A DNA stretch of 64,000 nucleotides from an uncultured Desulfosarcinaceae bacterium (GCA_964527835.1 CAZGNV010000004.1:40079-104078), one strand, 5' to 3'; counted from the stretch's first letter, positions 5,521 to 45,405 are shown. Made by a program: numbers and translations. The notes: a model not told the origin generated them from the sequence alone.

Positions 5521-6105
5521 ATGCAGAATTCACGTCTAACATGGCTTGCAAGCTTCATTGTTATGGTGGTGGCACTGGGCAATTTGCATGTTGCCCGGGC
5601 GGGTGACGGTCAACATGAGGTGATCCCGATGCGCTATGGAATGGCTGCCGTCGGGGGACGAACGTTTGACCCGGTCTCTGATATTTACTATGGCCAACTG
5701 ATGGGCTTTGTCATGTGGGATTATGATAAAGTGTGGCGTCACTGGGCGCCGGAGCCGCTGCGTTTCAAAGTCGAGGCCACCGTGGGCATGACGGTGTCGC
5801 CCCGGGTGCGACCCATGGCGTCGGTGGGCATGATGGCCCTGTATTACCTGGAATTTCTTTCGAGCCACCGGCTGGATCCTTACCTGGAAGGTGGCATCGG
5901 ACTGATATATACCGATTTTCAGGTCAAAGGCCAGGGATCCGACTTCAATTTTAATCCCCGCATCGGCATGGGCACCGAAATCAGCGTCAAATCCGGGGCG
6001 CCGTTTTTTTCGGCTGTGCGCCTTTCCCACATCTCCAATGCCGGGCTGAAAAGTGACAATCGCGGGGTCAACGCCGTGGAGTTGATCATCGGCCGGTTTT
6101 TCTAG
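5521..6105 (+). CDS. Acyloxyacyl hydrolase / PagL-like outer-membrane beta-barrel
   Basis: Signal peptide, PYLEGGIGLIY, FNFNPRIGMG, RLSHISNAGL..DNRGVN, terminal Phe. Confidence 0.78.
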   Translation: MQNSRLTWLASFIVMVVALGNLHVARAGDGQHEVIPMRYGMAAVGGRTFDPVSDIYYGQLMGFVMWDYDKVWRHWAPEPLRFKVEATVGMTVSPRVRPMASVGMMALYYLEFLSSHRLDPYLEGGIGLIYTDFQVKGQGSDFNFNPRIGMGTEISVKSGAPFFSAVRLSHISNAGLKSDNRGVNAVELIIGRFF

Positions 6106-6161
6106 TGTAGCGGTCCGATGCAAATTGCAATTAACAATGAATCCGGGATTGTAAAGCGAAG

Positions 6162-7307
6162 GTGAACCGATCAACCAACAATGAATCCAGACGGGTGGTC
6201 ATTACGGACATGGCGGCTGTCACTGCCTTGGGGGCCGACCTGGAAACGCTGTGGCAGGCGCTGGTGGCCGGCAGCAGCGGCATCGGACCGGTCACCCGTT
6301 TTCCCGTGGACGGCTATGATGCAAAGGTGGTTGCCGCAATTGACGATCTTGTTCCCTCCGGCAGCCGTTCCATGCTGCACGAATTGCTGGGCCGGCTTTT
6401 GTCCGCCATGGGACCGGTGCCGTCCGATGCCTTTTTGATTGCCGCCACCCTAAAGGCCGGCATCGACAACCTTCAGGCGGTGTGCCGCGGAAATCCGGCC
6501 GGCTTTGAAGATGTTTTACTTTCTTCTTTATGCGGCATCGTCGGCCGCAATCTGGGCTTGACGTGCAGCGGCATCACCATCAGCGCCACCTGCGCCTCTT
6601 CGACCATCGCCCTGGCCCATGCAGCGGCCCTGATTGATGCTGGTCGCATGGACGCGGTGCTGGTTTGCAGTGCGGAGCTGATCACGGAATACGCTTTTGC
6701 CGGTTTTTCGGCTTTAAAAGCCCTGTCGCCGGTTGCCTGCCGCCCGTTTGACCGTGATCGCAACGGCTTGTCCCTTGGCGAGGGAGCGGCCGGGCTGCTG
6801 TTGATGAGTGCCGCCCGGGCCCGGCGGGAAAATCGAACTCAGCTGGGCACCCTCCTGGGCTGGGGGATCTCCAATGATGCCACCCATATCACGGCCCCGG
6901 CAAAAAGCGGCCAGGGGCTGGTGCAGGCCATTGAGCAGGCCCTGAAAACAGCCGGCTGCAAAGCCGAAGCGATCGGGGCGGTCAACACCCATGGCACCGG
7001 CACGGTTTACAACGATTTGATGGAGCTGACCGCCTTGCGGCAGATATTCGGCAGCCGCCGGCTGCCGATCTATTCGATCAAGGGGGCCGTCGGGCATACC
7101 CTCGGGGCGGCCGGGGCCGTGGAGGCCATCGTGGGAGTCAAAACCCTGGCGACCGGCATGGCGCCGCCCACGGCGGGATTCAGGCACCCCGAAAATGGGG
7201 CTGAAGGCCTGGTGAACAGCGAGGTCCAGCCGGTTGCCGGGGATTTTCTGTTAACCACCAATTCAGGGTTCGGCGGTGTGAATGCCGCCCTGATTATCGG
7301 AAAATAG
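6162..7307 (+). CDS. Beta-ketoacyl-ACP synthase (FabF-like KS)
   Basis: ATCASS catalytic Cys, NTHGTGT, KGAVGHTLGAAG, NSGFGG. Confidence 0.92.
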   Translation: MNRSTNNESRRVVITDMAAVTALGADLETLWQALVAGSSGIGPVTRFPVDGYDAKVVAAIDDLVPSGSRSMLHELLGRLLSAMGPVPSDAFLIAATLKAGIDNLQAVCRGNPAGFEDVLLSSLCGIVGRNLGLTCSGITISATCASSTIALAHAAALIDAGRMDAVLVCSAELITEYAFAGFSALKALSPVACRPFDRDRNGLSLGEGAAGLLLMSAARARRENRTQLGTLLGWGISNDATHITAPAKSGQGLVQAIEQALKTAGCKAEAIGAVNTHGTGTVYNDLMELTALRQIFGSRRLPIYSIKGAVGHTLGAAGAVEAIVGVKTLATGMAPPTAGFRHPENGAEGLVNSEVQPVAGDFLLTTNSGFGGVNAALIIGK

Positions 7308-13968: not shown

Positions 13969-14817
13969 TCAGGCTACCTGTTCTTCCTGCAATCCCTTGT
14001 CTTCGCTGGCGGCAATCATCACCGGCCGGTCGATCATTTCAGCCAGCGGCAAAACCGTCAGACCTTTGGCCCGGATGCCGTCCAGAAGCCGCTCGATTTG
14101 TTTTAGCCAGGCGGGCAGAAGCGCTGGGTTGGGGGGGGCGGCATCATGCAGGGCGATAATATCGCCGGGTTGAATGCGCCTCAATATTTTTTGCGCAAGG
14201 TTTTTTATCCACCGGTTGCCGCCATCCATGGCGCGGCAGCTGAAGTTGACGAGATACAAGCCGGCCTCTGACAGCGCCGGCTGCAGCCGCGGGCCGGTGA
14301 TTCCCATCGGCGGGCGAAAGGCCAGGGGGCGGACGTCCAGTTTTTGCAACACCTGCTGCGTGGCAATAATTTCGCCGGCAATGGAGCTGGAGCTGCGAAA
14401 CATCACCAGGCTGTCGTGGGTATAGGAATGATTTCCAATGGTATGCCCCTGGTGCACGATTTCTTTTACCAGTTCCGGATGGGCGGCAGCCCGCTTGCCG
14501 AGTACAAAAAACGTTGCTTTTATCCCGTGCTTTGCGAGCAGTCTCAGCAACGGCGTGGTGAAAAGCGGGTCCGGGCCGTCATCAAAGGTCAGGGCCACCG
14601 CCTTTTTAGCGGCATCCCCCCGGCTGATGATCGGCAGGAAAAAGCCGAAACGGGGAAGAAGCGACGCCACCGCGCACAGCAGGATAAAGCCAGCCAGGAC
14701 AATCACAGACAGCCGCGGGTCCCAAAATGCCAGCAACGCGGCCCCGGCCAGGGCGCCGATGCCGATGCGCTCTCCCAGCGACAGCCGCGTGGCGGCTGCA
14801 GGAGCCGCCTGGATCAT
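13969..14817 (-). CDS. Polysaccharide deacetylase (NodB homology) with N-terminal membrane anchor
   Basis: ALTFDDGP, IGNHSYTH, FRPPMG, IIALHD; ATG 14817 overlaps the MMPL stop (ATGA). Confidence 0.88.
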   Translation of the reverse strand: MIQAAPAAATRLSLGERIGIGALAGAALLAFWDPRLSVIVLAGFILLCAVASLLPRFGFFLPIISRGDAAKKAVALTFDDGPDPLFTTPLLRLLAKHGIKATFFVLGKRAAAHPELVKEIVHQGHTIGNHSYTHDSLVMFRSSSSIAGEIIATQQVLQKLDVRPLAFRPPMGITGPRLQPALSEAGLYLVNFSCRAMDGGNRWIKNLAQKILRRIQPGDIIALHDAAPPNPALLPAWLKQIERLLDGIRAKGLTVLPLAEMIDRPVMIAASEDKGLQEEQVA

Positions 14818-17800
14818 GCGGCCGGCTGGATCTTTGCGATCATCCAAATCAATTCTCCATTGGCTCCTGAAGGTTGCGTGTGTTCAATGGAAAATCCGGC
14901 CTGCAGGAGCATGCTTTTGTTCTGAGCCACGGAGCGGTAATAGGCTGGTGTGCCGGAAAGTTTCAGCTTGAGGTTTTCCAGCCACCAGACCCAGGGCAGC
15001 CGTCTTTGGGGCGGGATGGTTGCCCTGACGATGAAACGTCCGCCGGGCCGAAGGCACTGGTAAATTCTTTTCAAGGCCAGGGGCAGGTCACGGTCATCCA
15101 GGTAGTGCATGATATCCATCATGACCACCAGGTCCGCCGGCTGCTCCGGGCAGGGGATGTCCGGGGCGCGGCCGATCTCAATTCGGCCCCTGTCTCCCAC
15201 GGCCCTGGCGGCGATCCGCACCCGCCCGGGGTCCGGATCGATTCCATGGACGCGGGCCAGGGGATACCGCTCCAGCAGCCAGCAGGCCGGAACCCCGTAA
15301 CCGCAGCCGATGTCGACAATCGTCTCGACCCCATCGCCGGGGGTCAAGATCTGCGGCAGTTCGGAAAACATCGGATCCAGGTCGACTTTAAACCTTGCAA
15401 ACAGGCGCGGATAGGCCTCCATGTTGCGGTAGCGCCCTAGCAGCCGCTGGCGCAGGGTCCCGCTGCATCGGCTTTTTTCCCGGCGGTGTTGAAACACCCG
15501 CTCCAGGACCGGCGGTAAAATGACAAAGGCTCCGATCAGACAATAGCCGATGCCCAGCAGCGAGGTCAGCCCGGCGCTTTTCAAAAGGTCGTGCTGCGCC
15601 GTGCACAGGACCCCGAACCCGATAAGAGTCGATGCCGCCGCCAGAAAAACCGTCATGCGGATCAGGGAGAAATAGGGATGGGCAAAATCGCCGTAGCGCT
15701 GATAGGAGCGGACGAAAAACAGGGAATAGTCCACGCCCATGCCGATGACGATGATGGCCAGCATCAGTCCGGGAATATCCAGCGGATGGCCGATGAGTTT
15801 TAAGGTGCCCAGGGTGCAGACCAGCCCGAAGACGACGGGCAGCAGGGCAATCACGGTCAGCGTGATGTCGAAGAAGAACACCAGCAGCAGCACCACCACG
15901 CTGAGGCCCACGATGGCCAGCATTTTCACGAAGGTGGCAAACAGCAGCTTGCCCATGTTTTGCGAAAACAGCTGCGGATCAAACACTTTGCCCAGCTGTC
16001 GGTAGCGGGCATAAAACACTGCCGCGTTGTAAGCCGGCCCGGTGCCAAGGGTCGAGACCTGCAGCCAGGAGTTTTCTGCCGGGCCGGGCACAATGCCCAG
16101 CAGGCTGAAAAATTTGGGTGGAATCGGCAGGGGCTGCAGTTGGACGGCATCGGGTTGCAGCATCTTGTAAAAGGGCGCGAACGCATCGGCGGCAAAGCCC
16201 AGCTCCCGGGAAGCCGCCTGGAGCACCTTTTTCACGGCGGTGATGCGCTCGGTGGTCCAGAAGTTTTTCCAGGCTGCAAGATTTTGCCGGCGGCGGCTTT
16301 CGCCGGGAAAAATCATGGAGGAGACAAAACCCGAAGAAAGCATGCCCGAGCGCCGGTCCTGCTCCAGCAGCTCCAGGAGCCGGTCATCCTTGTTTTGAAG
16401 GGCGCTGACGCTGTCGGCGGCGGTCAGCACGTAAATTCTGTCGAAGACCCAGCCCCACACGGCGGCAAGTTTTTTGTCGGCGGCAGCGGTCTGCGGCCTG
16501 ACCGTGTTCATGGCACTGAGTTTGACATTGAAATCCGGTTTGGCGAAAAACAGCATCAATGCGGCGAAGGCCAGGGCCATCCAGGCGCCTTTTTTGCCTG
16601 TACCGGAAAGCTTGTCGACCAGGTTATGAAGCGGCAGCGGCCGGGGACTTGCCGGCGCCATGGCGGGCAAAACCAGGGGCAAAACGCTGTGGACGAAGAT
16701 AAATGCAAAGGCGATGCCCAGGGCGGTGAATTGTCCCAGCTGGGCCAAAATGGGAAAACCGCTGAAATTGAGAGCGGCAAAAGCGCCGATGGTAGTCAGC
16801 ACCGCCAACAGGCCCACGGCCTTGACCTCGGCTGAGGCCTGCCGCCCGTAAGTTTGGCTGGGACGATCGACAAACAGCAGGTAGGCGATGGCATGATCGA
16901 CGGATATCGAGATGATAGCCCCGCCGAAACCGAGCACCATCAGCGATATGGACCGGTGCAGCAGGGAAAATACGAAAAACGCCAGCATGGCCCCGGCCAC
17001 GGCCGGCAGCAGCGACAGCAGGCCGATATAGGGCCGGGGAAATGAAATCAGCAGCAGCAGGATGATGCCCGCGGTTGCTAGCACGATTGCGTTGCGCACA
17101 TCGCGCCTGATAATCAGCTCGTTGTCCAGTGCCGCCCGGTAAGCCCCCACCGGGGTCAAAACAACCCGCTGGCCGGCGGCGGCCGGCTGTTGATTGAGCT
17201 GCCCGGCGATGTTGTCAATGACCGCCGCAGCCCGCCGGGCAAACTGCGTGTCAGTGCTCGAAGCTGCGGGATGGGCGATGACCAGCAGGTGCCTGCCGTC
17301 CGGCGACAAGATCTGCCCCCTGTAGATGTGCACCGACTGCGAAGGCGCCAAGTCGGCCAGCCGGGCCATCACCAGGTTTCTCAGCTCCAGCGGGTCTGCG
17401 GCAATAAACTGCGCCTGCCCGATGGCGTCGAGGCTTAACAGGTTTCGCCGCGTGGCGGCCAGCTTTTGCCGGATCTTTTGCGGTTCCAGCAATGGTTTGA
17501 CGTTGTCTTCGAGTTGGACGGCACTGAACATGGCCGGCAGATTGCTGACAACGTGAAATGCCAGTTTGGGGATCAGATCGCGGGTTTGCTGCAGGCCGAC
17601 TTTTTTAAACAGGCCGCTGTCTCTCAGGCTTTTTTCAACCTGCCGGCCGTATTCAACCAGCGCATCTTTGTCGGCCCGTTCAAGGTTGACATCGATGACC
17701 AGCTGATCCTGGATCGGGTTGTGGCGGAAGATGTAAAGCGCATCGGCGATGACGGGATCATTGCGGGGCAAAAATCCCATGATGTCCGCATCGATCTTCA

Positions 17801-21711: not shown

Positions 21712-21712
21712 G

Positions 21713-32472: not shown

Positions 32473-32615
32473 AAGTGGTTGCAATGTCGCGTCTAATACT
32501 CGATAGCGGCGTTGTCCCGAGAATTTAAATGCTCACGTACTGCGTGTACGCTCCGCTTTAAATTCTCGAGACGCCTTGCTCTCGAGCATGATCCGGGGCA
32601 CTGCAACCACTTCTA
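32470..32615. mobile_element. MITE-like element with 14-bp perfect inverted ends
   Basis: TAGAAGTGGTTGCA / TGCAACCACTTCTA; inner GAGAATTTAAA / TTTAAATTCTC; CTAG and CTAA flanks; the left end supplies the fabG stop. Confidence 0.75.
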
Positions 32616-32633
32616 ACTGGAAATTTCACCATA

Positions 32634-33911: not shown

Positions 33912-33985
33912 AGGCTAAAATTCCAACAGCAGGGCAACGAAGCACTTGTTTTTTCATCAATTCAAAAACAAAAACGGGTTTATTT

Positions 33986-35257: not shown

Positions 35258-35283
35258 AACAACAACCGATTCAACGGGATGAA

Positions 35284-36306
35284 ATGACAAGCGAGAAAAA
35301 TGATAAACCTGCATCCGAAATAACCCGCAGAGATTTTATCCGGTATTCCGGTGTGGTCGGCGGAGCTTTATTTTTTGGTTTACACGGAGATTTGGCTATG
35401 TCCGATCCAAATAAAAGTCGCGTTGCCCTGGTCAGTACCCAAAATCGCAAAACCGGAGTTGCTGCAAGCATTCGGGCACTGGATCTCAATCCGGTTAAGA
35501 ATAAGGATGTACTGATCAAGCCCAATTTCAACACGGCGGATCACGCTCCGGGATCCACTCACAACGATACCCTGGTGGCCCTGGTGGAGGAAGCCTGGAA
35601 GATGGGAGCCAAAACGGTCAGCCTGGGGGAGCGCAGCTATCCGCCCACCCGTGAAGTTATGGCCCAAAAGGGCATCATCCCATTAATGGAAAAGCTGGAT
35701 GTCACCATCATCGATTTTGACGAGCTGGCAGCAAAGGACTGGATCAAGGTTGACGCTAAAGATTCCCACTGGCAGGACGGATTCCGGGTGGCCCGGCCGG
35801 TTCTGGAGTCGGAGTGTCTGATTTCCACCTGCTGTCTGAAAACCCATCAGTTCGGCGGGGTGTTTACCATGTCGCTCAAACTTCATGTGGGGGTAGTCCC
35901 CACCACGCGGCACGGCTATCATTATATGCGCGAACTGCATTCATCTCCCCATCAACGGAAGTTGATTGCTGAACTGAACGCCCCCTTTACACCGGCCCTC
36001 ATTGTCCTGGACGGCATCGATGCTTTTGTCGACGGTGGTCCGGCCAGCGGAAAACGTGCCAGGGGCAATGTTTTTCTCGCTGCCACCGATCGGGTGGCCA
36101 TTGATGCTGTCGGGCTGGCGGTCTTAAAATCGCTGGGAAGCAACGATCAAATCATGAACACCAAGATTTTCGATCAGGAACAGATTGCCCGGGCGGCGCA
36201 ATTAGGGCTGGGAGCGTCATCCCCGTCGCAAATCGAGGTGCTTGCCGCAGGAGAGCAAAGCCGTGCATACCGAAATCGGGTGGTTAAAATTCTTAGCCAA
36301 GGCTGA
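35284..36306 (+). CDS. Tat-exported DUF362 Fe-S protein
   Basis: TRRDFIR twin-arginine signal, VLIKPNFN, LKTHQFGGVFTMSLK, DRVAIDA. Confidence 0.8.
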   Translation: MTSEKNDKPASEITRRDFIRYSGVVGGALFFGLHGDLAMSDPNKSRVALVSTQNRKTGVAASIRALDLNPVKNKDVLIKPNFNTADHAPGSTHNDTLVALVEEAWKMGAKTVSLGERSYPPTREVMAQKGIIPLMEKLDVTIIDFDELAAKDWIKVDAKDSHWQDGFRVARPVLESECLISTCCLKTHQFGGVFTMSLKLHVGVVPTTRHGYHYMRELHSSPHQRKLIAELNAPFTPALIVLDGIDAFVDGGPASGKRARGNVFLAATDRVAIDAVGLAVLKSLGSNDQIMNTKIFDQEQIARAAQLGLGASSPSQIEVLAAGEQSRAYRNRVVKILSQG

Positions 36307-36910
36307 CGCGCTTTGGAGGGCTCCAGTAAAGGCAGGCATTGACTTCGTACCATGCGAGGCCGGTGGTCAGGGGCCCCCGGGTGCAGGGGCTGATGATGCC
36401 GCAGACAACAAAAAGATCAATCACCGCATGCAGATCCAGGGAAAGTTTAAGTGGTTGCATGATGGCCCCCATGAGCCCGGCTTCGACGGTATAAGACGGC
36501 GCATGGCGTTTGAGGTGCCGGAAAAATTGAACCAGAGCTTCGATGTGATCTCCGGCTTCGGCGGCCAGTGATTCTTGCACCGCCCTTTCAGGGTCCAGGG
36601 TGCCGGTTTGCCCGGCGTTTTCCACCAGCTTGCGCGCCACCGGCGGCATAAAATAGGTTTCTCCGGCGCCCAGGGCAAGAATCCGGTCTTCCCAGGCCGG
36701 GCTTTGGCCGGATTTTACGGGGATCAGCAGGCGTTCTTCAAAGGCCGTCAAGATGCAATCATTTATCTGATGCGGTGGCAGGTCAATAGTTTCATAGGAT
36801 ATGACTTCTGCACCCATTGCGGTTGCCAGCAGTCTGGCCAGGTTGGCGGCTTCCTTTTGCTGAAGCTGGGATCGCAGTGCCGTTTCAAGATGGTGGATTC
36901 TTTTTATCAT
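36293..36910 (-). CDS. Hypothetical protein (tandem paralog B)
   Basis: Coupled ORF; shares LLIPV, AGExY, TGT, GIISP, YEVN with its neighbour. Confidence 0.75.
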   Translation of the reverse strand: MIKRIHHLETALRSQLQQKEAANLARLLATAMGAEVISYETIDLPPHQINDCILTAFEERLLIPVKSGQSPAWEDRILALGAGETYFMPPVARKLVENAGQTGTLDPERAVQESLAAEAGDHIEALVQFFRHLKRHAPSYTVEAGLMGAIMQPLKLSLDLHAVIDLFVVCGIISPCTRGPLTTGLAWYEVNACLYWSPPKRVSLG

Positions 36911-37512
36911 GGCCGTTGCGGCCCCGGATAGACGCTGGGGTTGACTTCATATAGCGGGGCTTTGGTTCTGGCCACCGGTTCGATGGCGGCCAGCTTCGGG
37001 CTGATAATGCCGCCGCCCTTCAAAATCGCAATCATGGCGCCGGTTTTGTCTTTGATTCCGGCTTTGAGGCAGGCGGCATTGATGGCCGCCGCACCGATGG
37101 TATAATTGACGGCTCGCCCGGTGATTGCCGCGACCAGCGGCGGCATTTTCTGCCAGTCCGGCTCCCCCATGTCCCGGTACAAAGACAGAACAGCCCCCGG
37201 GATGTTCCACGTTCCGGTGGCAGCCGCCACCTCGATCAGGTAGCGGGAGATGTTCGGTTTTTCATACATCTCACCCGCTTCCATCCTCATCACCCGGTTG
37301 TCCCATTCGCTGCACTGGGAGGCCGCCACGGGTATCAGCAGCTTCCAGTCCCACGCAAACAGCAGCAGTTCCTCGATGTCCCGGGGTTCAATTTTCCGGA
37401 TGTCCTCAAATGCAATCGTGGGCTGGCGACAGGCAGCCATTAAAACATCGGCAAGCCCGGGAGGCATTTTTTCACCATAGCGGGCGTAAAACGCGCTGGA
37501 CAGATGCTGCAT
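36907..37512 (-). CDS. Hypothetical protein (tandem paralog A)
   Basis: Starts immediately after the radical SAM stop; same shared motifs. Confidence 0.75.
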   Translation of the reverse strand: MQHLSSAFYARYGEKMPPGLADVLMAACRQPTIAFEDIRKIEPRDIEELLLFAWDWKLLIPVAASQCSEWDNRVMRMEAGEMYEKPNISRYLIEVAAATGTWNIPGAVLSLYRDMGEPDWQKMPPLVAAITGRAVNYTIGAAAINAACLKAGIKDKTGAMIAILKGGGIISPKLAAIEPVARTKAPLYEVNPSVYPGPQRP

Positions 37513-39015
37513 TTAATATTCCCCGATGGCGGCTTCCAGATCCCGGAAAACGTTGACGGTTTTCTGCCGCTGGATGACCCGCTCGTAGCGTCCCTGCCAG
37601 CCGTATTTTTTCAGGCTCCGCCCGATGACAATCTTGGCCGCCGGCCGAAAAGCGTAGCGCCAGATGCCGGTCCACAGGGGGCCCCGGCTCCGGACGCGCT
37701 CCGAGGGCTCCCACCAGCCCAGCACCTTCTGGCGGTGATACCAGAACAGGTACTGCAGCCGATCGGAATCCAGGTGACGGGTTTTCACATTGGCCCACAT
37801 GCCGTTGTACCAGCGAAAGTCGTCCGGGTTGGTCACCAGCCCTTCGTCGATCAGGTGCCGGCGCATGCCGGTTTTGGGGTAGGGGGTCAGGATCTGGCAG
37901 TAGGCGGTGTCGGCCTGGACTTCCTTTAGAAAGCGGTAATTTTCGATGATGTCCGGTTCTTCGTCATCCGGAAAGCCGAAAATCATCCCTCCCACCACCA
38001 TGATGTCGTATTTGTGACACATCTGCACGGCTTTGCGGGAGGCCTCCACGATGTTGCCCTTGCCGGCGGTGGCCAGGTTTTTCCGGGAGGCGTTTTCAAT
38101 TCCCAAAAAGACGGTTTTCACCCCGGCCAGCGACATTTTGCGCACCATCTCCTCGTTGCGGGACATGGAAATACAGTCGGCCTGGACCACCAGTTGCAGG
38201 TTTTGATATTCGCGGGCGATGATGGCATCGCAGATGGCGATGACCCGCTCGGGATCCAGCACCAGGTTGTCGTCGGCCACGAAAATCCAGTGGGTTTTAC
38301 GGTTGTAGTAGATATCGTCAATGTCCGCCAGCACGCGCTCGATGGGAAAGGTGCGGAAGGTCCGGCCGTACATGTGCCGCATGCTGCAGTAGTTGCAGGT
38401 GCGGGTGCAGCCGCGGGAGGTTTCCATGACCTCGACCTTGGAGTTCATGATGTGGTAGCCCCAGGTCAGCCGCCGTTTGTCGCGGATGGGATGCTTCAGC
38501 CGCGCCAGGTCCAGCAGCTCGCCCTGGGCATTGTGCACGAAACGCCCGTTGCGCTTGTAGGACAGCGACGCAATGTCTTCCAGCCGGTCTTTGCCGGCCA
38601 GGGCGTTGACCAGCCGGCGGCAGGCTTTCTCGCCTTCGCCGCGGACGATAAAATCGATCAAAGCGGCTTCAGGAGAAGCCGCAATTTCTTCATGCATCAG
38701 GGTGGCGTGATAGCCGCCGATGACGATTTTGACGTCAGGCAGCAGCTGTTTGATCAGGCGGATCAGCTTGACGCAGGTGTCGTACTGCCATGACATGGTG
38801 GACAGGCCCACCAGCTCGGGACGTATCTTGAGCAGGGTCCGGGTCAGGTATTTGACCAGCGTGCGGCGTTTGCGGATCAGGTCGATGAGAAAAACTTGGT
38901 GGCCGTCATCAATGTTGGCACCCACACTGGCAATGCCGCAATTGGGCATGTGAAAGGCGGCTTCATGCATGATGACCGGGGCCACGTCCGGCATGGACAT
39001 CAGGACAACTTTCAT
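37513..39015 (-). CDS. B12-binding radical SAM protein
   Basis: VGLSTM, VIGGYHAT, ETSRGCTRTCNYC, LTPYPKT. Confidence 0.92.
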   Translation of the reverse strand: MKVVLMSMPDVAPVIMHEAAFHMPNCGIASVGANIDDGHQVFLIDLIRKRRTLVKYLTRTLLKIRPELVGLSTMSWQYDTCVKLIRLIKQLLPDVKIVIGGYHATLMHEEIAASPEAALIDFIVRGEGEKACRRLVNALAGKDRLEDIASLSYKRNGRFVHNAQGELLDLARLKHPIRDKRRLTWGYHIMNSKVEVMETSRGCTRTCNYCSMRHMYGRTFRTFPIERVLADIDDIYYNRKTHWIFVADDNLVLDPERVIAICDAIIAREYQNLQLVVQADCISMSRNEEMVRKMSLAGVKTVFLGIENASRKNLATAGKGNIVEASRKAVQMCHKYDIMVVGGMIFGFPDDEEPDIIENYRFLKEVQADTAYCQILTPYPKTGMRRHLIDEGLVTNPDDFRWYNGMWANVKTRHLDSDRLQYLFWYHRQKVLGWWEPSERVRSRGPLWTGIWRYAFRPAAKIVIGRSLKKYGWQGRYERVIQRQKTVNVFRDLEAAIGEY

Positions 39016-39830
39016 GATTTTTTCACTCCATCAGTATTTTTTGCAGTTTGGGATTCAAGCAGCCAGCGCACCCGGGCCATCAATTCAGCAACTGCAAATG
39101 AGTCGCTATGGTAGTCCGGTTCAATACGGGCCAGCTGTTGAACGCGGATGGTATCGGTTGCGCAGGCGTTGAACAGAAACCGGCCGGGTTCAAACAGTTT
39201 GTCGGTGTTGTCAATTCGCAGGACGACAATCGGGGCCCGGCACAGTCGGGCGATTTTAAACGCTCCCTTGTTGAGGGGTCCGATGGTGCCGTCGCGGCTG
39301 CGGGTGCCTTCCGGGAAAATGAACAGATTGCCGCCCGAGGCCAGGTACGGCTCCATGGTTTCCATGCGCTGGATCATGACTTCCGCCAGCCGGCCTTCGG
39401 AAGCCGACGGAATGTATCCGGACCACAGCAGCATGCGGCCGAATATGGGCACCCTGAAAAAAGTGCTTTTGACAATGGTTTTGTGCCGCGCAAACAACGA
39501 GATCAGCACCAGCGGATCCAGGTACGACAAATGGTTGCAGACAATCACCGCGCAGCGCAGCGACCGGATCTCATCGGGTATCCGCCATTTGTGCCCCGGA
39601 ATCAGGATGCGGGCGACAAAAAAGAACCCCCGGTAGAACTTGTGGTTCAACCGCTGAAAGGCAAGCTCGCGGTTTTCGGCCACCAGCCAGGCGATCAGGT
39701 AGCGCGGGGAAAACAAAACCACAAAACCGAGGGTAAAATAAATCCAGATCCCCGCGGTGGCGCCAATATCCAACACCGGTTTCAGGAGGCGGCAGAAAAA
39801 ATGCTGTTCGGATTTGTTATAATGGTTCAC
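39012..39830 (-). CDS. plsC: 1-acyl-sn-glycerol-3-phosphate acyltransferase family
   Basis: NHLSYLD (NHxxxxD), FPEGTRS. Confidence 0.88.
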   Translation of the reverse strand: MNHYNKSEQHFFCRLLKPVLDIGATAGIWIYFTLGFVVLFSPRYLIAWLVAENRELAFQRLNHKFYRGFFFVARILIPGHKWRIPDEIRSLRCAVIVCNHLSYLDPLVLISLFARHKTIVKSTFFRVPIFGRMLLWSGYIPSASEGRLAEVMIQRMETMEPYLASGGNLFIFPEGTRSRDGTIGPLNKGAFKIARLCRAPIVVLRIDNTDKLFEPGRFLFNACATDTIRVQQLARIEPDYHSDSFAVAELMARVRWLLESQTAKNTDGVKKS

Positions 39831-39833
39831 GGA

Positions 39834-41066
39834 TTATGGCTTTTTGATAATCAAGCAGGTGTTCACCCCGCCAAAGGCGAAATTCTGGACGGCGGCGATG
39901 CGAATGTCGGCCTCCATAAGGCTGCGGGCATGCCGGATCATGGCGCAGCGCTCATCGATCTCCTCCAGGTTCAGGGTGGGGGCGATAAAGCCTTTTTCCA
40001 TCATGTACAGGGTGAGCAGGGCTTCGATGGCCCCGCACGACCCCATGGTATGTCCCATGTAGCTTTTGAGCCCGGTGACCACCGGACCGTCCGCGTACAC
40101 CCTGCCGGTGGCCTGGGCCTCGATGGTGTCGCCCATTTTGGTGGCCGTGGCATGGGCGCTGACAAAATCCACCGCATCGGCGCTGACGGCCGCATCCTCA
40201 AGCGCCAGCCGGATGGTGGCGGTAATGCCCTCCGGGTTCGGCAGAATCAGATCCCCGCCGTTGTTGGTGCAGGAAAAGCCGATGATTTCCCCCAGGATCT
40301 GAGCGCCGCGCTTTTTGGCGAATTCAAAATCTTCCAGCAGCAGGGCGCCGGCCCCCTCGGCCACCACCAGGCCGTCGCGGTGCTTGTCGAAGGGCCGCGG
40401 CGTCAGGTGCGGCGTGTCGTTGTATTCGGTGGAGCAGGCCAGCAGGTTGTCAAACACCGCCACCGTGGTGGTGTCATACTCGTCGGCGCCGCCGCAGAGC
40501 ATGGCATCCTGGCGGCCGAATCGGATCATTTCGTAGCCGAAGCCGATGGACTGGCTGCTGGTGGTGCAGGCCGTGGAGGAGGAAATCACCCGTCCGGTGA
40601 TGCCGAACATCTTGGTGATGTTGACCGCCGTGGTGTGCACCATGGATTTTAAATAATCCACGGCTCCGATGGAGGAAAAACGGGTGCGCGATCCGCTGAA
40701 AAAGGATTTGTATATTTCCCTTTGAACCGACGGGCTGCCGTGGGTGGAGCCGAAAGCCACCCCCAGTCTGCCGGAGGTGATAAAGGCATTGTCCAGCCCG
40801 GAGGCTTCCAGGACTTCCTTGGCCACCTGGCAGGCATAATAGGACACCGGGCCCATGGTCTTGCGATAGTGGCGTTTGAAATCGAAGCTGATGGGATAAT
40901 CAACGGTGCCGAACACCCCGGAATGAATATAACCGGACAGCAGGTCGTCGGGTTTCATTTTTTTAACCCCGGAGACCCCCTGCTCCAGGTGACGGATAAT
41001 TTCATCTTTGCTATGGCCGATGGGGGTGATGGCGCTGCCGGCCGTAATGACGACTCTGCGTTGCAT
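39834..41066 (-). CDS. Beta-ketoacyl-ACP synthase
   Basis: TACTTSSQSIG, SAHATAT, KSYMGHTMG, NFAFGG; start moved to ATG 41066. Confidence 0.9.
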   Translation of the reverse strand: MQRRVVITAGSAITPIGHSKDEIIRHLEQGVSGVKKMKPDDLLSGYIHSGVFGTVDYPISFDFKRHYRKTMGPVSYYACQVAKEVLEASGLDNAFITSGRLGVAFGSTHGSPSVQREIYKSFFSGSRTRFSSIGAVDYLKSMVHTTAVNITKMFGITGRVISSSTACTTSSQSIGFGYEMIRFGRQDAMLCGGADEYDTTTVAVFDNLLACSTEYNDTPHLTPRPFDKHRDGLVVAEGAGALLLEDFEFAKKRGAQILGEIIGFSCTNNGGDLILPNPEGITATIRLALEDAAVSADAVDFVSAHATATKMGDTIEAQATGRVYADGPVVTGLKSYMGHTMGSCGAIEALLTLYMMEKGFIAPTLNLEEIDERCAMIRHARSLMEADIRIAAVQNFAFGGVNTCLIIKKP

Positions 41067-41148
41067 TTCCAAAATCCCGGGGTGCGCTGATGGCGGCCCC
41101 AATGTTGTTAGGTGGAATTTCCGGCCGCTGTTGGGGACGGATTTGTGA

Positions 41149-41430
41149 TCATGCCTGCCGGGTCTTTGCTTCTCCGGGGGCCCGGCTGCCTGCCAGCATT
41201 TCAATGTAATCCAGAATCTGATTGATGGTTCGGATTTCCATGGCCATCTTTTTTTCGGCCCGGCTCAATTCCGAGCCGAGCATAATTTCGATCTCGCGCA
41301 GCAGCTCGATGGCATCGATACTGTCAAACTCGTGTATCTCCCTCAGGTCATCGTCGAGCCCGGGATTGTCGATCTCAAACTGATCGCTGAAGATCCTGAT
41401 AATCTCGGATTGTATTTCGTCACGCGTCAT
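41149..41430 (-). CDS. Acyl carrier protein 3
   Basis: EFDSIDAIEL. Confidence 0.88.
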   Translation of the reverse strand: MTRDEIQSEIIRIFSDQFEIDNPGLDDDLREIHEFDSIDAIELLREIEIMLGSELSRAEKKMAMEIRTINQILDYIEMLAGSRAPGEAKTRQA

Positions 41431-41463
41431 GAAAGCTGGCCCCTGGATGATAAAAACAAAATA

Positions 41464-42396
41464 TTACATCTTCTGCCCGGTTTGTTCAACCCCAAATGAT
41501 TGCGGCGCCGGTTTCGCTCCAGCGCGCAGAAAGGGCTTGAAATGATACCATTGCAGCGGATGGCGTCGCAGCGCCGCTTCCAGGGCATCGGCATATTCTT
41601 GGGCTGACTGCCGGATGGCCGCATCTCGCTGGTCGCGGGCGGCGGCAGTGATGGATATGGGCGGCGACATGTTGAACTGGTAGTGGTTTTTTCCGGTGCG
41701 GAAGGCAAAAAAAATGAAGATGGGGGCGCCCGATACCAGCGCCAGCACATGGGGCGTCTGGGGCAGTGCGATTTCATGGCCCAAAAATTTCGCCGCCACC
41801 GTGCGTTGATCCTTTTTCCACACCAGATCCCCGGCCATTGAAACCACGCCGCCTTCCTGAACGAATCGGATGCCCTCGACAATATCCAGGGGCGATCCGC
41901 CGTGTTCGTCCGCCGCCACGATCCGGATGTCATTTTGAACCAGGCTCTGTTTTTGAATCCGTTCGATCTGTTCTTTCTGTTTGGCTCCCATGTACAGCAG
42001 CAGCGGGGTTTTCTTGAGCCGGCGTTTGAGCAGGTGGGCGCCCACCTCCCAGTTGCCCATGTGGGACATGAGCAAGATGGCGCCGCGGCCGCCGGCCAGG
42101 TTTTGCTCCAGGTGCTCCAGGCCGCTGGAAGTATAGGTGATGGCATCAAATTCCTGCAGCACAAAGCGGTCGAAAACGACATCCGTAAAATTATGAAACT
42201 GCCGCCAGGCGCACCACAGGTGAAACAGCCGGCCGCGATCGGGGTACAGGGCACGGTATAATCTTACGGAGTTGTTGACCCGGGCCGGGAAAAACAGGAA
42301 ATATCCCGTGGCCACAAACCAGGCAAACAGCCCAAAGACCCAGGGGCCCAGGATTTTCGTCAGCCGGGTGGTGGTTTTATAGAATAATTCGCTCAT
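41464..42396 (-). CDS. LpxL-like lysophospholipid/lipid acyltransferase
   Basis: SHMGNWE, SMAGD, PLQWYHF. Confidence 0.85.
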   Translation of the reverse strand: MSELFYKTTTRLTKILGPWVFGLFAWFVATGYFLFFPARVNNSVRLYRALYPDRGRLFHLWCAWRQFHNFTDVVFDRFVLQEFDAITYTSSGLEHLEQNLAGGRGAILLMSHMGNWEVGAHLLKRRLKKTPLLLYMGAKQKEQIERIQKQSLVQNDIRIVAADEHGGSPLDIVEGIRFVQEGGVVSMAGDLVWKKDQRTVAAKFLGHEIALPQTPHVLALVSGAPIFIFFAFRTGKNHYQFNMSPPISITAAARDQRDAAIRQSAQEYADALEAALRRHPLQWYHFKPFLRAGAKPAPQSFGVEQTGQKM

Positions 42397-42410
42397 GACC
42401 GTTCAAAGGC

Positions 42411-42509
42411 TTGAATGGCGCTCAAAAATGGCTTTTTGCAACTCAATCAAGTTCGTTTCTCATCGGCTGCCGCCGGGCGGCATAAACAAGCTTTTTACGA
42501 ACCCATCAA
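42411..42509. mobile_element. Short degenerate MITE of the same family as 22984 and 2254
   Basis: Right end GCTTTTTACGAACCCATCAA; degenerate left end TTGAATGGCGCTCAAAAATG. Confidence 0.5.
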
Positions 42510-42521
42510 CCGATTAAGGCC

Positions 42522-43253
42522 TCAATGTTTTCCCACGAAAGGGTGCAGCAGGATCCTGCGGGTGATCAACCGCGAAAAGGTGCAGGTGTTTCTTAAAAAG
42601 TCGACAAACGGCCGGAAATGGGAGACCCGTTCGCCGGCCGGGGCATAGCAAACCCCGACCGGCACTTCGACAACCGGGATTTGCTTCCAGCAGGCTTTTA
42701 CCAGGATTTCGATTTCAAATTCGAAGCGCCGGGCCTTGACGTTCAGTTCCAGAGCTTCCGGCAGGGGATAGATCCTGAACCCGCTTTGGGTGTCCCGCAG
42801 GCGGGGCCCTCCCGCACAGGCGATCCAGAAATTTGAAAAACGGCGGCCGAAGCGGCTGGTCCAGGGGACATTTTGTCCGTCCATGCCCTGCCGCAGGCCC
42901 ACCACGATGGGGCGGGCGTGTTCCCCGATGGCCCGCATCATCAGCCGGGCATCGGCCGGGTTATGCTGTCCGTCGGCATCGATGGTAATGGCCCAGTTCG
43001 CCACTTCGGCGGCGGCGGCAAAACCGGTGAGCAGGGCCGCTCCCTTGCCGCAGTTTTGCGGATGGTGCAGAACGTGGATATGCTTGAAGGCGCTGATTCT
43101 TTCATAACTGCCATCCGTGGAACCGTCATCGACCACGAAAACCGGCATATCCAGCTCCAGGGATTTTTTGACCACGTCTTGGATGTGCCGTTGATGGTTG
43201 TACACCGGGATGACAACGGCAAATCGCTGTTTTTGCGCAGGTGACAGGTCCAT
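42522..43253 (-). CDS. Glycosyltransferase family 2
   Basis: VIPVYN, VDDGSTD, NCGKGAAL, IDADGQH, DTQSGFR; ATG 43253 overlaps the upstream TGA. Confidence 0.92.
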   Translation of the reverse strand: MDLSPAQKQRFAVVIPVYNHQRHIQDVVKKSLELDMPVFVVDDGSTDGSYERISAFKHIHVLHHPQNCGKGAALLTGFAAAAEVANWAITIDADGQHNPADARLMMRAIGEHARPIVVGLRQGMDGQNVPWTSRFGRRFSNFWIACAGGPRLRDTQSGFRIYPLPEALELNVKARRFEFEIEILVKACWKQIPVVEVPVGVCYAPAGERVSHFRPFVDFLRNTCTFSRLITRRILLHPFVGKH

Positions 43254-44980
43254 CAGGATCCGTGCACAGCTGCAGGCAAAAACGCCACGGCCCACGTCCC
43301 CGGCCCGAAATGAACCCCGGAGGTCAACGATATGGGCTGCAGCAAGATTTCACTGGACTCAAACCGGGCGGCGATGGCTTTTTGGGCCGTAGTCTCCACC
43401 CAGTCGCGATTATCACTGTACTCCAGCATGATCAGGGGAGCCGAGCCGAACGGGCAGGCGGAGTTCAGTTTTTCAAGGGCGAATTTCAGCTGGGCGGCTG
43501 CGTTTTTTGCCGTGCCCATCTTTTTGGCACCTTCAGCCGTGGGGCTGATGATGGGCTTGACATGCAGCATGTCGCCGAAAAATGCACTGGATTTGGACAA
43601 GCGCCCGCCGGCGGCAAGATATTTGAGCTTGTCCAGAAAAACATATTCCTCACAAGTCCGGACCGCCCGCCGGGCAAAATCGATCACCGCTTCCGGGTCG
43701 TCGGTTGTTTGGGCATACCGGGCGGTGGCCAGGGCAATGGTGCCCAGGCGGCCCGAGGCCGCCCCCGTATCGATGACGATCAGGCGGCTGCCCGCATCAT
43801 TGTGGTTTTTCCACTGCATGGCAACGTCAAAGTTGCCCGTATAAACAGAGCCGACGCAAAGGTACAGCACCCGGGGGTATAGTTCCGTCACCCGCTGGTA
43901 ATACTGGTGGCGCTCGAACATCGAGGCCTGGGAGGTGGAGGCCTGGATGCCGGCCCGCATGTTCTGATAAAGTTCGGTGGCGGTAAACAGACTTTCCGGC
44001 AGGGACTTGTCGCCGGCGATGATGTAGCTGTCCAGCAGGGTGACACCCAGTTGGCGGGCCATTTCCCGGCTCATGGAGCCGGCGGCATCGGTCATGATAT
44101 GAAGAGCGCCTTGTGGGCTGGATTGTTTGAAAGCGTTGATCTGGGCGGCGAGATCGTCGTCGGTCCACTGCACCACCTGCCCGAGATCCTCCATTTTGCG
44201 GCGTAAAGACGCCACGTCTGCGGTGTGCAGGTGAACCTTCAGGTAGTCCTTGTGGGGGATCAGCACCACGTTGTCGCCGTTTTGGCGCAGGCGGTCGATT
44301 TTTTCCTGTTCATTGCCGTCCAGGCGGATGACGGTGTCCACACAGTGGCCGGCTTCCATTTGAGCCTGAAAGGACGAAGAGATTGCAAGCAGACCCTTGA
44401 ATCGCGCTGCCAGCGGTTGAAACCCGTCGGTCCGGCCGGCGAGGTGCTTGAAAAAACTTTCAAAAAACAGATACATCCCCAGCGCGCCGGAGTCCACAAC
44501 GCCGGCGGGCTTCAGACCGGGCAGCAGTTGGGGGGTTAATTTTACGGCCGCCTCCAGCTGGTCGATGATTTCGTCAACGGATGCATCCAGGGCCGGCCTG
44601 CCGTTTTTGGCCAGGACATCCACCAGGGTGTCGAAAACCGTCAGCATGGTTCCGTGGACCGGGTTGCTGACAGCCTGCCAGGCTTGGTCGCGGCCCAGTT
44701 TCGCAGCCTGCAGAAGATCTTCCAGGGTGTCGGCCGTCAGAAAGCCGGCGAAAAAGCGGGCTGCGATGTTGCCGGAGTTTCCCCGCGCGGCCAGCAGCAG
44801 CTGCTGGATGGTCGCATCCCGGTTTTCATCCAGGTAGCGCAAGGGCGTGAGGCTGGCGATCAGGTTGCGACCGGTATCACCGTCGGCCACTGGAAAGACA
44901 TTGATGCTGTCCAGAACGTCGGACCAGGCGGCCACCCTTTCAACACCGGCAATGTGGGCTTTTTGAAAATCCGGTTTCAT
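43253..44980 (-). CDS. DAK2 (FakA-like) + DegV (FakB-like) fusion, putative fatty acid kinase
   Basis: INVFPVADGDTGRNL, ARGNSG, GTMLTV, VVDSG; then DegV part IMTDAAG, TSQAS, IDTG, GVHFGPG. Confidence 0.88.
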   Translation of the reverse strand: MKPDFQKAHIAGVERVAAWSDVLDSINVFPVADGDTGRNLIASLTPLRYLDENRDATIQQLLLAARGNSGNIAARFFAGFLTADTLEDLLQAAKLGRDQAWQAVSNPVHGTMLTVFDTLVDVLAKNGRPALDASVDEIIDQLEAAVKLTPQLLPGLKPAGVVDSGALGMYLFFESFFKHLAGRTDGFQPLAARFKGLLAISSSFQAQMEAGHCVDTVIRLDGNEQEKIDRLRQNGDNVVLIPHKDYLKVHLHTADVASLRRKMEDLGQVVQWTDDDLAAQINAFKQSSPQGALHIMTDAAGSMSREMARQLGVTLLDSYIIAGDKSLPESLFTATELYQNMRAGIQASTSQASMFERHQYYQRVTELYPRVLYLCVGSVYTGNFDVAMQWKNHNDAGSRLIVIDTGAASGRLGTIALATARYAQTTDDPEAVIDFARRAVRTCEEYVFLDKLKYLAAGGRLSKSSAFFGDMLHVKPIISPTAEGAKKMGTAKNAAAQLKFALEKLNSACPFGSAPLIMLEYSDNRDWVETTAQKAIAARFESSEILLQPISLTSGVHFGPGTWAVAFLPAAVHGS

Positions 44981-45405
44981 GGTGAAAGCTCCAGGGCCTG
45001 GCGGATATCATCCGGTATTTCAAACAATATTTCCATGGCGGGATATTTTACCGCCACCTGCTCGCTTCTGCCTTTGGCGCAAAGCTGGTCGTTTTTGATC
45101 AGCTTGATTTTAAAATCGATCACGATCTTGTATTGGGCCTCGGCCACCGTGGCCTCGCAGATGAATTCATCGCGGTATTTCAGGGAAACGATGTACTTTG
45201 TGGCGGTTTTTATTATCGGAAACAGACAGCGGGTCTTTTGATAATAATCAAACAGATCGATTCCCACGTCATGAAAGAGCGCTGAGCGCGTCTGATCGAA
45301 ATATTTCAGGTAATTTCCATGCCACACCATGTTCATGGGGTCCAGGTCGTAAAACGGCACCGTGAAGGTCATCGCATGGCTTTTGTACACTTGGTTATTC
45401 ATCAC
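44977..45405 (-). CDS. Acyl-CoA/ACP thioesterase (4HBT hotdog)
   Basis: FYDLDPMNMVWHGNYLKYFD. Confidence 0.88.
   Translation of the reverse strand: MMNNQVYKSHAMTFTVPFYDLDPMNMVWHGNYLKYFDQTRSALFHDVGIDLFDYYQKTRCLFPIIKTATKYIVSLKYRDEFICEATVAEAQYKIVIDFKIKLIKNDQLCAKGRSEQVAVKYPAMEILFEIPDDIRQALELSP

Follow-up and report, generated by a model that had tools for sequence, protein, structure and literature searches.

Organisation of the cluster

We analysed a 64,000-nucleotide stretch of DNA from an uncultured Desulfobacterales bacterium (GCA_964527835.1 CAZGNV010000004.1:40079-104078), referred to throughout as the window. A first inspection of its sequence had placed a single large gene cluster between positions 5521 and 45405, rich in radical S-adenosylmethionine (SAM) enzymes and in components of a type II fatty acid synthase/polyketide synthase (FAS/PKS). 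This original prediction inferred a hybrid pathway. We find that the combination of genes is nothing unusual but the standard, widespread, and highly conserved form of a cluster type of the Desulfobacterota that was described in 2009, and that the window holds an ordinary member of that as yet uncharacterised lipid cluster type. Our reading, to which we give a probability of roughly 55%, is that the region is a dedicated lipid-biosynthesis island made up of two co-inherited modules, which would operate according to the overall scheme set out below.

Gene content, intact active sites, operon structure, synteny, and family memberships could be read directly from the DNA. Genes were called by open reading frame (ORF) length and codon-position GC content (the window averages ~57% GC); all sizeable ORFs of the window were scanned against Pfam, and the key ORFs against NCBIfam. 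For synteny, we compared 22 metagenome loci anchored on the MMPL-methyltransferase gene and five anchored on rSAM_b or the Fak-like gene, all described below (loci are numbered with an L). Start/stop overlaps and strand runs divide positions 5521-45405 into five operons (E, D, C, B, and A). Every type of gene that had been listed for the region was recovered in its place with Pfam or NCBIfam support: five ketosynthases (KS) that keep the catalytic Cys-His-His triad and two chain-length-factor (CLF)-like units in which the Cys is absent; three acyl carrier proteins (ACPs), three dehydratases, two thioesterases, a FabG, and five radical SAM enzymes; and three acyltransferases, two glycosyltransferases, a deacetylase, an MMPL transporter, and LolA-like and PagL-like proteins. 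To these we add a Dak2-FakA_M-DegV fusion, a DUF362 protein, an FMN_bind lipoprotein, a lipoprotein adjacent to the LolA-like gene, two AF_2141-family genes, a small protein with two transmembrane segments (2-TM), and a SAM-methyltransferase domain fused to the MMPL transporter.

The reported lack of an enoyl reductase and of an AMP-dependent ligase holds for all sizeable ORFs of the 64 kb, among which the Pfam and NCBIfam scans also returned no phytoene desaturase, and the window ORFs include no aryl-acid gene. The single FabG-type short-chain dehydrogenase/reductase (31735-32472) has no FabI-type Yx6K motif. Within 5521-45405 there is no Amino_oxidase/phytoene desaturase domain, and the sole flavoprotein of broadly similar class in the window is a GMC oxidoreductase (60008-61321) that lies outside the cluster. 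Unlike a housekeeping fab operon, the region contains no FabD, FabH, FabI, or AccABCD.

Operon C (19786..31131) lies on the minus strand and is transcribed from ACP2 (30865-31131) to PlsY (19786-~20400). ACP2 is followed by a 722-residue KS-CLF fusion with a catalytic N-terminal half and a Cys-less C-terminal half (28700-30868), and then by a B12-domain radical SAM enzyme of the TIGR04072 family (27354-28703); 4-nucleotide start/stop overlaps join ACP2 to the fusion and the fusion to the radical SAM gene. Next come an ApeI-like hotdog dehydratase (26935-27309; 36.9 bits against a cut-off of 28.5), ACP1 (26641-26919), and two adjacent non-B12 radical SAM genes, rSAM_b (25523-26620) and rSAM_a (24522-25565 or ~25520). 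The remaining genes before PlsY encode two FabF-like ketosynthases with intact catalytic triads, KS3 (23226-24482) and KS2 (21713-23083 or ~22978), a 4HBT thioesterase (21232-~21710), and a double hotdog dehydratase with the PfaA-type PS-DH domain (20357-21253). KS2 and KS3 score about 330-380 bits with the fabF model, which is under its cut-off. The N-terminal half of the KS-CLF fusion has as its best PDB match chains B and C of 9s5h, which may be the anammox amxFabF heterodimer, an assignment of which we make no use. AbApeO (7f28_B, 185 bits) and XdApeO (6qsp_A, 169 bits) are among the top three, and these two structures (7F28 and 6QSP) are about as close to this half as anything else.

Operon B (31288..36306, plus strand) is divergent from operon C. 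It opens with an ApeP-like hotdog dehydratase (31288-31728), which scores 25.3 bits, just below the cut-off of 27, but is found in the precomputed Pfam hits and has XdApeP (6qsr_B) among its top three PDB matches. By analogy with aryl-polyene (APE) systems, the ApeI-like and ApeP-like proteins probably form one heteromeric dehydratase. A FabG-type ketoreductase follows (31735-32472), with TGxxxGIG and YxxxK motifs, and then a LolA-like protein (32634-33251; Pfam LolA), the adjoining lipoprotein, of no known family (33252-33911), the B12-domain radical SAM enzyme B12rSAM_2 (33986-35257), and the DUF362 protein (35254-36306), which has a twin-arginine translocation signal only if the right start codon is chosen. 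Synteny of operon B extends to L001, L002, L082, L107, and L108. The DUF362 protein is a conserved member of the cluster (77% identical) and in relatives is placed beyond the thioesterase end.

Operon A (36293..45405, minus strand) starts with a second 4HBT thioesterase (44977-45405), the stop of which overlaps by 4 nucleotides the start of a 575-residue Dak2-FakA_M-DegV protein, a single-chain Fak-like kinase (43253-44980). Fatty acid kinase ordinarily consists of two proteins. The DegV part scores 143.6 bits against a cut-off of 99.7, with the Dak2 and FakA-middle domains both present; the fusion is 60%-83% identical in relatives, where a 4HBT thioesterase always adjoins it. Further along are a GT2 glycosyltransferase (42522-43295; Pfam Glycos_transf_2), an LpxL/LPLAT-type acyltransferase (41464-42396; Pfam Lip_A_acyltrans) that falls below all lipid A acyltransferase cut-offs and is best matched by a phosphatidylinositol mannoside (PIM) acyltransferase model, ACP3 (41149-41430), KS4 with its catalytic triad (39834-41204 or ~41066), a PlsC-type acyltransferase (39012-39830), and, again coupled by a 4-nucleotide overlap, the BchE/HpnR-like B12-domain enzyme B12rSAM_3 (37513-39015). 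KS4 is ApeR-like, with 335 bits to PpApeR (4ewg) and 313 to AbApeR (7f27) against ~225 to FabB (identities of the ApeR and ApeO entries from PMC8358021); with NF006587 it scores 400 bits, below the cut-off of 470. The order from the thioesterase through the Fak-like kinase, GT2, LpxL-type, ACP, KS, and PlsC genes to the B12-domain radical SAM gene is kept in L107 and L108. Two AF_2141-family paralogues end the operon (36907-37512 and 36293-36910; the label comes from the precomputed Pfam hits); they are 30% identical to each other and absent from the L082 and L107 clusters.

The four genes of operon D (13969..18999, minus strand), assigned by Pfam and NCBIfam, encode the FMN_bind lipoprotein (18604-18999), a GT25-like glycosyltransferase (17882-18607), a 1023-residue MMPL/RND transporter with a C-terminal SAM methyltransferase domain (14814-17885), and a polysaccharide deacetylase (13969-14847). 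The first three are joined by 4-nucleotide overlaps, the transporter-methyltransferase fusion is kept full length in relatives (47%-84% identity), and the gene order is kept in at least 15 loci. Between operons D and C, hydropathy identifies the small 2-TM membrane protein (19415-19762, plus strand), which is 56%-84% identical in relatives and found there on the same relative strand; a minus-strand ORF at 19412-19807 was rejected as a shadow of this gene. Operon E, on the plus strand, consists of a PagL-like outer-membrane lipid deacylase (5521..6105; Pfam PagL, 67 bits), the 381-residue KS1 with its catalytic Cys-His-His (6162-7307), and the 239-residue CLF1, which has no active-site Cys (7310-8029). 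The KS1/CLF1 pair is 47%-83% identical in relatives and lies there beside the deacetylase gene. An assignment of KS1 as the cispentacin enzyme AmcF was discarded, with 236 bits against a cut-off of 325 and with every KS gene matching the AmcF model.

The proposal of a single cluster across 5521-45405 holds as far as a conserved syntenic unit is concerned, but positions 8030-13968 are an unrelated insertion that is absent from all relatives. This 5.9-kb segment separates the convergent CLF1 and deacetylase genes and encodes an ORF of low GC and no known family (8285-8707), a beta-helix/NosD-like protein (9148-10305), a VapB/VapC toxin-antitoxin pair (10462-11132), and a two-subunit 2-oxoacid:ferredoxin oxidoreductase (11378-13784); GC is 0.46 across the 8-10 kb part of the window. 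In all relative loci, CLF1-KS1(-PagL) comes next after the deacetylase gene or, as in many of them, a sixth B12-domain radical SAM gene stands between the deacetylase gene and CLF1-KS1-PagL, and none of these loci has the beta-helix, VapBC, or oxidoreductase genes at this site. Since, in addition, similarity to the closest relative (L085) ends exactly at the CLF1 stop codon, we take the segment to be an insertion and not part of the pathway. A search for repeats around 8030-13968 gave short chance matches only, with no insertion-sequence ends and no target duplication, and a tRNA scan of the window found none, which leaves no clue to an integration site. The idea that the 2-oxoacid:ferredoxin oxidoreductase provides the cluster with starter units or reductant was dropped, since no relative has the insertion in which this enzyme is encoded.

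The left boundary of the conserved cluster is the PagL-like gene, which adjoins KS1 in L087, L098, L100, and L102 and the deacetylase gene in L091 and L099; NAD kinase and ABC transporter genes lie further out in L087. On the right, the boundary is the thioesterase gene at 45405, past which the genes differ from those of L107 and L108. Both flanks hold commonplace metabolic genes. On the left (232 to 5444) are components of a TRAP transporter, an aldehyde:ferredoxin oxidoreductase, a bactofilin, and a weakly scoring methyltransferase, which is found beside KS1 in L085 as well. Past the right end of the cluster, 47742-52565 is of lower GC and has the look of a defence or mobile islet, with a DUF4231/SLATT-like 2-TM protein (47742-48323), a 665-residue protein without a family (48248-50245), small ORFs of no known family, and a HigB-like toxin with a helix-turn-helix antitoxin (52269-52565 and 51948-52253). 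The sequence from 52910 to 63991 encodes an amidohydrolase, a Bmp-family ABC transporter, an MBL-fold protein, the GMC oxidoreductase mentioned above, and a LarA-like protein.

Conservation of the two modules and of the radical SAM enzymes

Dozens of independent contigs repeat the gene order of the cluster, with protein identities of 50%-90%; the clustering is far beyond chance. The syntenic unit is common to many Desulfobacterales and Thermodesulfobacteriota metagenome contigs, and the source names of homologues, in lists that are filled by close Desulfobacterota relatives, are Desulfobacterales, Thermodesulfobacteriota, and Deltaproteobacteria. When the KS-CLF fusion was used to scan a genome collection, the nearest contigs were two short ones from Desulfobacterales metagenome-assembled genomes (MAGs), at 79%-80% identity; the remainder of that scan was mostly generic KS or APE loci, and no anammox or Desulfotalea locus was returned.

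The order of operon C is identical in L082 and L086-L094. In L083 and L084, operon C together with the ApeP-like gene and FabG forms a stand-alone 13-kb unit without export genes, in which KS and CLF are separate genes, whereas in L082, L107, L108, and the window, the same core is found together with operons A, B, D, and E. This pattern supports a cluster composed of a conserved core (module 1) and an accessory module (module 2). The family also varies in its gene content: L092 has an AMP-binding enzyme (16842-18488) between ACP-like and LpxL-like genes, so a starter-activating function exists in some of its variants.

All five radical SAM proteins have the CxxxCxxC motif, and three of them (27354-28703, 33986-35257, and 37513-39015) carry an N-terminal B12-type domain. 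The first of these belongs to TIGR04072 (rSAM_ladder_B12; named 'lipid biosynthesis B12-binding/radical SAM protein' in NCBIfam), to which it aligns over residues 2-449 and model positions 1-443/443 with 397.7 bits against a cut-off of 360; the other two, at 41 and 103 bits, are not members. Enzymes of this type are broadly distributed, with 631 clusters (50% identity) at E<1e-30, and the named members include Flammeovirga (Bacteroidota) and MAGs of Planctomycetota (not labelled as anammox), Bacteroidetes, and Elusimicrobia. Some are natural fusions with an LpxL-type acyltransferase (P0247), a hotdog dehydratase (P0256 and P0409), or a second radical SAM domain (P0248), which supports a role for the TIGR04072 enzyme on acyl chains, at a stage between dehydration and transfer.

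By sequence identity, the radical SAM genes are the most constrained of the cluster. Among the 2045 homologues of rSAM_b at E<1e-10, the best 120 cluster representatives are 72%-87% identical, and the best 120 Desulfobacterota cluster representatives of B12rSAM_2 are 79%-91% identical. Within L082, rSAM_a (91%), ACP1 (86%), and KS2 (84%) are close to their counterparts in the window, and the KS-CLF, ApeI-like, PS-DH, and thioesterase proteins are 52%-61% identical. Rumen Bacteroidaceae MAGs have an APE-like operon, with two phytoene-desaturase-like genes, followed by a homologue of B12rSAM_2 that is 69% identical (L063, 17751-19046), from which it appears that B12rSAM_2 travels with APE-type modules across phyla; its conservation could reflect either horizontal transfer or very strong constraint. 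Its one match among PDB sequences is AprD4, a diol dehydratase.

The non-B12 pair, rSAM_a and rSAM_b, are paralogues of ~350 residues with 30% mutual identity, each with a C-terminal CC-x(5-7)-C-x2-C motif. We made an AlphaFold model of rSAM_b (mean pLDDT 65), for which Foldseek found the SPASM/twitch proteins SkfB, CteB, BlsE, SuiB, and anSME as nearest neighbours; this is a general SPASM/twitch placement and not a specific functional match. The modelled fold fits, although not specifically, an auxiliary-cluster enzyme that would oxidise or cross-link its substrate after hydrogen abstraction.

Relation to aryl-polyene and ladderane-type clusters

The resemblance to APE clusters that had been noted is borne out. 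With the apeB-R clusters of E. coli CFT073, Xenorhabdus doucetiae, and Acinetobacter baumannii, the window shares an ApeO/ApeC-type KS-CLF pair (here fused, and close to ApeO), an ApeR-type KS (KS4), at least two ACPs, the ApeI/ApeP dehydratase, an ApeQ-type ketoreductase, and the lack of an enoyl reductase. The anchoring and export set is shared as well, namely an ApeD-type LPLAT, an ApeJ-type GT2, an ApeK-type thioesterase, an ApeL LolA-like protein, and an ApeM RND/MMPL transporter, and APE-type loci of Bacteroidales and proteobacteria have 12-17 genes in common with the window. The product logic is similar too, in that a glycerol-phosphate-hexosamine scaffold would receive several chains and be delivered to the outer membrane. 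The APE lipid consists of glycerol-phosphate-GalNAc with an aryl polyene, a C26:5 conjugated fatty acid, and a saturated chain, and roles have been assigned to ApeD (lysophospholipid acyltransferase), ApeJ (glycosyl/acyltransferase), ApeM (RND exporter), and ApeL/ApeN (LolA/LolB-like carriers) (bioRxiv 10.1101/2020.12.19.423268). Structure and gene roles together offer a direct model for how operons A, B, and D may work. Two kinds of difference stand against these likenesses. The window has neither the adenylating enzyme ApeH nor a supply of the aryl starter (4-hydroxybenzoate), and it has genes that APE clusters lack: the five radical SAM genes, the PS-DH gene, two FabF-like KS genes, its own PlsY, the Fak-like kinase, the deacetylase, the PagL-like, FMN_bind, and DUF362 genes, and the transporter-fused methyltransferase.

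The second claimed likeness, to candidate ladderane clusters, was likewise upheld, by the TIGR04072 score and by gene content. For the latter, we compared the gene content of the window with published gene tables (PMC4790861 Table 2; PMC2649909). Cluster kuste3335-3352 of Kuenenia has a radical SAM pair, three FabF paralogues (one non-canonical), two ACPs, FabG, FabZ, a glycosyltransferase, and a deacetylase-like gene (PMC4790861; PMC2649909). The FASII and SAM clusters of this kind in Kuenenia, Desulfotalea psychrophila, Geobacter, and Pelobacter share with the window an adjacent radical SAM pair, FabF paralogues of which one is non-catalytic, two ACPs, FabG, a hotdog dehydratase, a glycosyltransferase, a deacetylase-like gene, SAM methyltransferase domains, and an occurrence in Deltaproteobacteria (now Desulfobacterota); their phytoene-desaturase-like and phenylacetyl-CoA-ligase genes are absent from the window. 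A KS/CLF-type pair with a B12-domain radical SAM enzyme occurs in kuste2802-2805 and kuste3603-3608 (PMC4790861; PMC2649909). The latter, anammox Cluster I (amxACP, amxFabZ, amxFabF2/amxFabFmut, a phytoene dehydrogenase (PDH) homologue, and a B12-domain radical SAM enzyme), is reported only from ladderane producers. In both, as in the window, ACP, KS/CLF-type, hotdog dehydratase, and B12-domain radical SAM genes are adjacent, but in the window the KS/CLF heterodimer is fused, the dehydratases are of ApeI/ApeP type, the PDH is absent, and the host belongs to a lineage of sulfate reducers.

Rattray et al. (2009) described the synteny of the Kuenenia cluster with Desulfotalea psychrophila as 'striking' and reported similar clusters in Geobacter and Pelobacter, whilst no ladderanes were found in D. 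psychrophila (PMC2649909). More recently, antiSMASH 'ladderane' calls were recorded in Desulfobacterota and other non-anammox phyla, their function being left open (PMC9902471), and in reviews and preprints up to 2026, the biosynthesis of ladderanes and the role of these enzymes are still described as unknown (PMC13459092; PMC10139942; bioRxiv 10.64898/2026.05.19.726425). In our literature search, no characterisation of such a cluster outside anammox bacteria came to light, nor any paper on TIGR04072 by name, and we found no case of near-complete synteny with a characterised cluster of known product. A chemical precedent is the jawsamycin-type PKS, in which the radical SAM cyclopropanase Jaw5 acts repeatedly on an alpha,beta-unsaturated, carrier-bound intermediate with no enoyl reduction (PMC13459092). 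Jaw5, however, is HemN-like and works with a type I iterative PKS in Streptomyces, whereas the enzymes of the window are B12-domain or twitch-like proteins with type II partners, and there is no sequence relationship between them.

A proposed pathway and its alternatives

From the genes, we infer each chemical step, the order of the steps, the acceptor, and the product. Module 1 (operon C with the ApeP-like protein and FabG) would be a type II FAS/PKS without an enoyl reductase. The KS-CLF fusion is predicted to prime and extend chains on the dedicated ACPs, FabG and the ApeI/ApeP dehydratase would bring each round to the enoyl stage, the two FabF-like ketosynthases may lengthen the chain further, and the PS-DH protein would be part of a synthase that makes unsaturated acyl-ACPs. 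The carrier-bound chain could then be tailored by the TIGR04072 B12-type enzyme and the two twitch-like non-B12 enzymes, most likely by C-methylation and/or C-C bond formation at or beside the double bonds (the enoyl positions), and with tailoring at these bonds, no enoyl reductase would be needed. The chemistry envisaged in the original prediction, in which radical reactions would methylate or cyclise a polyene that is then put on a glycolipid, is plausible and lies near our own best guess.

The genes of operons A, B, D, and E, which form module 2, are homologous to those that APE clusters use for anchoring and export. Here, the ApeR-like KS4 with its own ACP, and the small KS1/CLF1 pair, may make or extend a second chain. 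The hotdog thioesterases would free the acids, which the Fak-like kinase could convert to acyl-phosphates for the cluster's own PlsY; PlsY and PlsC would place chains on glycerol phosphate, and the PlsC- and LPLAT-type acyltransferases would add further chains. The order of thioesterase, Fak-like, and GT2 genes that is kept in L107 and L108, together with the dedicated PlsY and PlsC, suggests such a route from free acid through acyl-phosphate and lysophosphatidate to phosphatidate. The GT2 and GT25-like enzymes and the deacetylase are candidates for building a hexosamine head group, and the MMPL-methyltransferase fusion, the LolA-like protein, the lipoprotein, and the PagL-like deacylase may move the product towards the outer membrane and trim it. 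The FMN_bind and DUF362 proteins hint at an additional periplasmic redox step.

Several points weigh against this scheme. B12-domain radical SAM enzymes also perform non-methylating reactions (BchE, HpnJ, AprD4), and the reactions of radical SAM enzymes cannot be read from sequence; the model of rSAM_b, with the mean pLDDT given above, is mediocre, and its TM-scores are ~0.4. The Fak-like protein reaches 99 bits against the equivalog cut-off of 975 for FakA, and 49 against 350 for FakB1, so its activity on fatty acids is a prediction at the level of domains. The missing enoyl reductase could be supplied by a housekeeping FabI, FabK, or FabV, and the PagL-like, LpxL-type, and GT25-like genes would fit a lipid A acceptor equally well. 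No RNA run that we searched contained the sequence, which is matched by the source DNA run alone. Finally, the Kuenenia counterparts have been expressed in E. coli and gave rise to no new fatty acids (PMC4790861).

Of the other explanations, an oxygen-independent route to polyunsaturated fatty acids (PUFAs) or hydrocarbons, the hypothesis put forward in 2009, comes first, although we consider it unlikely. The radical SAM enzymes or the PS-DH protein would then introduce or isomerise double bonds, in line with the lack of an enoyl reductase, the presence of a PfaA-type PS-DH domain protein, a twitch-like fold that is common to radical dehydrogenases such as anSME, and the polyunsaturated hydrocarbons of D. 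psychrophila (PMC2649909). Yet the phytoene-desaturase-like gene that was central to the 2009 proposal is not in the window, the link between hydrocarbon and cluster was never tested, and five radical SAM enzymes, three of them of B12 type, exceed the needs of desaturation.

Slightly less probable is that the acceptor is lipid A or lipopolysaccharide (LPS), a special long or branched chain being transferred from a dedicated ACP by the LpxL-type enzyme, and the PagL-like and GT25-like enzymes remodelling the LPS. The rhizobial acpXL-lpxXL system offers a parallel. The LpxL-type gene lies directly beside ACP3 and KS4, and the cluster contains PagL-like, LpxL-family, and GT25 (an LPS family) genes as well as a deacetylase; against this, the LpxL-type protein resembles a PIM acyltransferase more than any lipid A acyltransferase model, the presence of PlsY, PlsC, and a Fak-like kinase speaks for the assembly of a glycerolipid, and the homologous ApeD uses a lysophospholipid (bioRxiv 10.1101/2020.12.19.423268).

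That the region is an ordinary APE pigment cluster, making an aryl-capped polyene lipid against oxidative stress with the radical SAM genes as incidental neighbours, seems to us improbable in spite of the ape-like genes enumerated above (from the ApeR-like KS4 and ApeO/ApeC-like KS-CLF to the LolA and MMPL proteins) and of the 12-17 genes shared with Bacteroidales and proteobacterial loci. Besides the missing ApeH-type enzyme and aryl-starter genes, the radical SAM genes are translationally coupled to KS-CLF and PlsC and are the most conserved of the cluster, which argues that they are not incidental, and the core that includes them also exists without APE export genes.

A ladderane product, with concatenated cyclobutane rings as proposed for the homologous anammox clusters, is very improbable. 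It would account for the TIGR04072 ('rSAM_ladder_B12') enzyme next to KS-CLF, for the adjacency of KS/CLF, ACP, and B12-domain radical SAM genes that mirrors kuste3603-3608 and kuste2803-2805, for a radical SAM pair and FabF paralogues that mirror kuste3342/3343 and kuste3346-3349 (PMC4790861), and for the antiSMASH label 'ladderane' given to such clusters (PMC9902471). However, ladderanes are known only from anammox Planctomycetota and the host belongs to the Desulfobacterales; D. psychrophila lacks ladderanes while carrying a syntenic cluster (PMC2649909); the anammox phytoene-dehydrogenase homologue is absent from the cluster; TIGR04072 also occurs in Flammeovirga, Elusimicrobiota, and Planctomycetota MAGs that are not labelled as anammox; and the link between cluster and ladderanes is unproven even in anammox bacteria (PMC10139942). 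That housekeeping genes for fatty acids, phospholipids, and the envelope came together here by chance and share no product, an idea for which the break at 8030-13968 and the FabF-like scores of KS2 and KS3 might be cited, is hardly credible given the recurrence of the gene order across dozens of contigs, the overlapping genes, the fusions between components, and the lack of FabD, FabH, FabI, and AccABCD.

Returning to our reading of a two-module lipid island, the question of what these clusters make dates from 2009 and is tied to the problem of ladderane biosynthesis. Several elements are new here: the 13-kb core, which is also found alone, is separated from the APE-type module for anchoring and export; the predicted route through thioesterase, Fak-like kinase, PlsY, and PlsC points to glycerophospholipids as the place to look for the product; the natural fusions connect the TIGR04072 enzyme with the dehydration and transfer of acyl chains; and Flammeovirga joins the published Desulfotalea and Geobacter as cultivable carriers for knock-outs and lipidomics. 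Sulfate reducers of sediments carry clusters of this family in abundance: homologues number in the thousands, and their radical SAM enzymes are 70%-90% identical. Given this abundance, the lipid is probably a significant and as yet unrecognised component of the envelope of these bacteria. The boldest version of the scheme, that the radical SAM enzymes replace the enoyl reductase in each round of elongation and thereby give rise to a poly-methylated or small-ring (cyclopropane- or cyclobutane-type) acyl lipid in common marine sulfate reducers, is a long shot. If it is true, the lipid would be an undescribed one that could explain orphan branched or cyclic biomarkers in sediments, and the family would provide a cultivable, genetically tractable model for ladderane-type chemistry.

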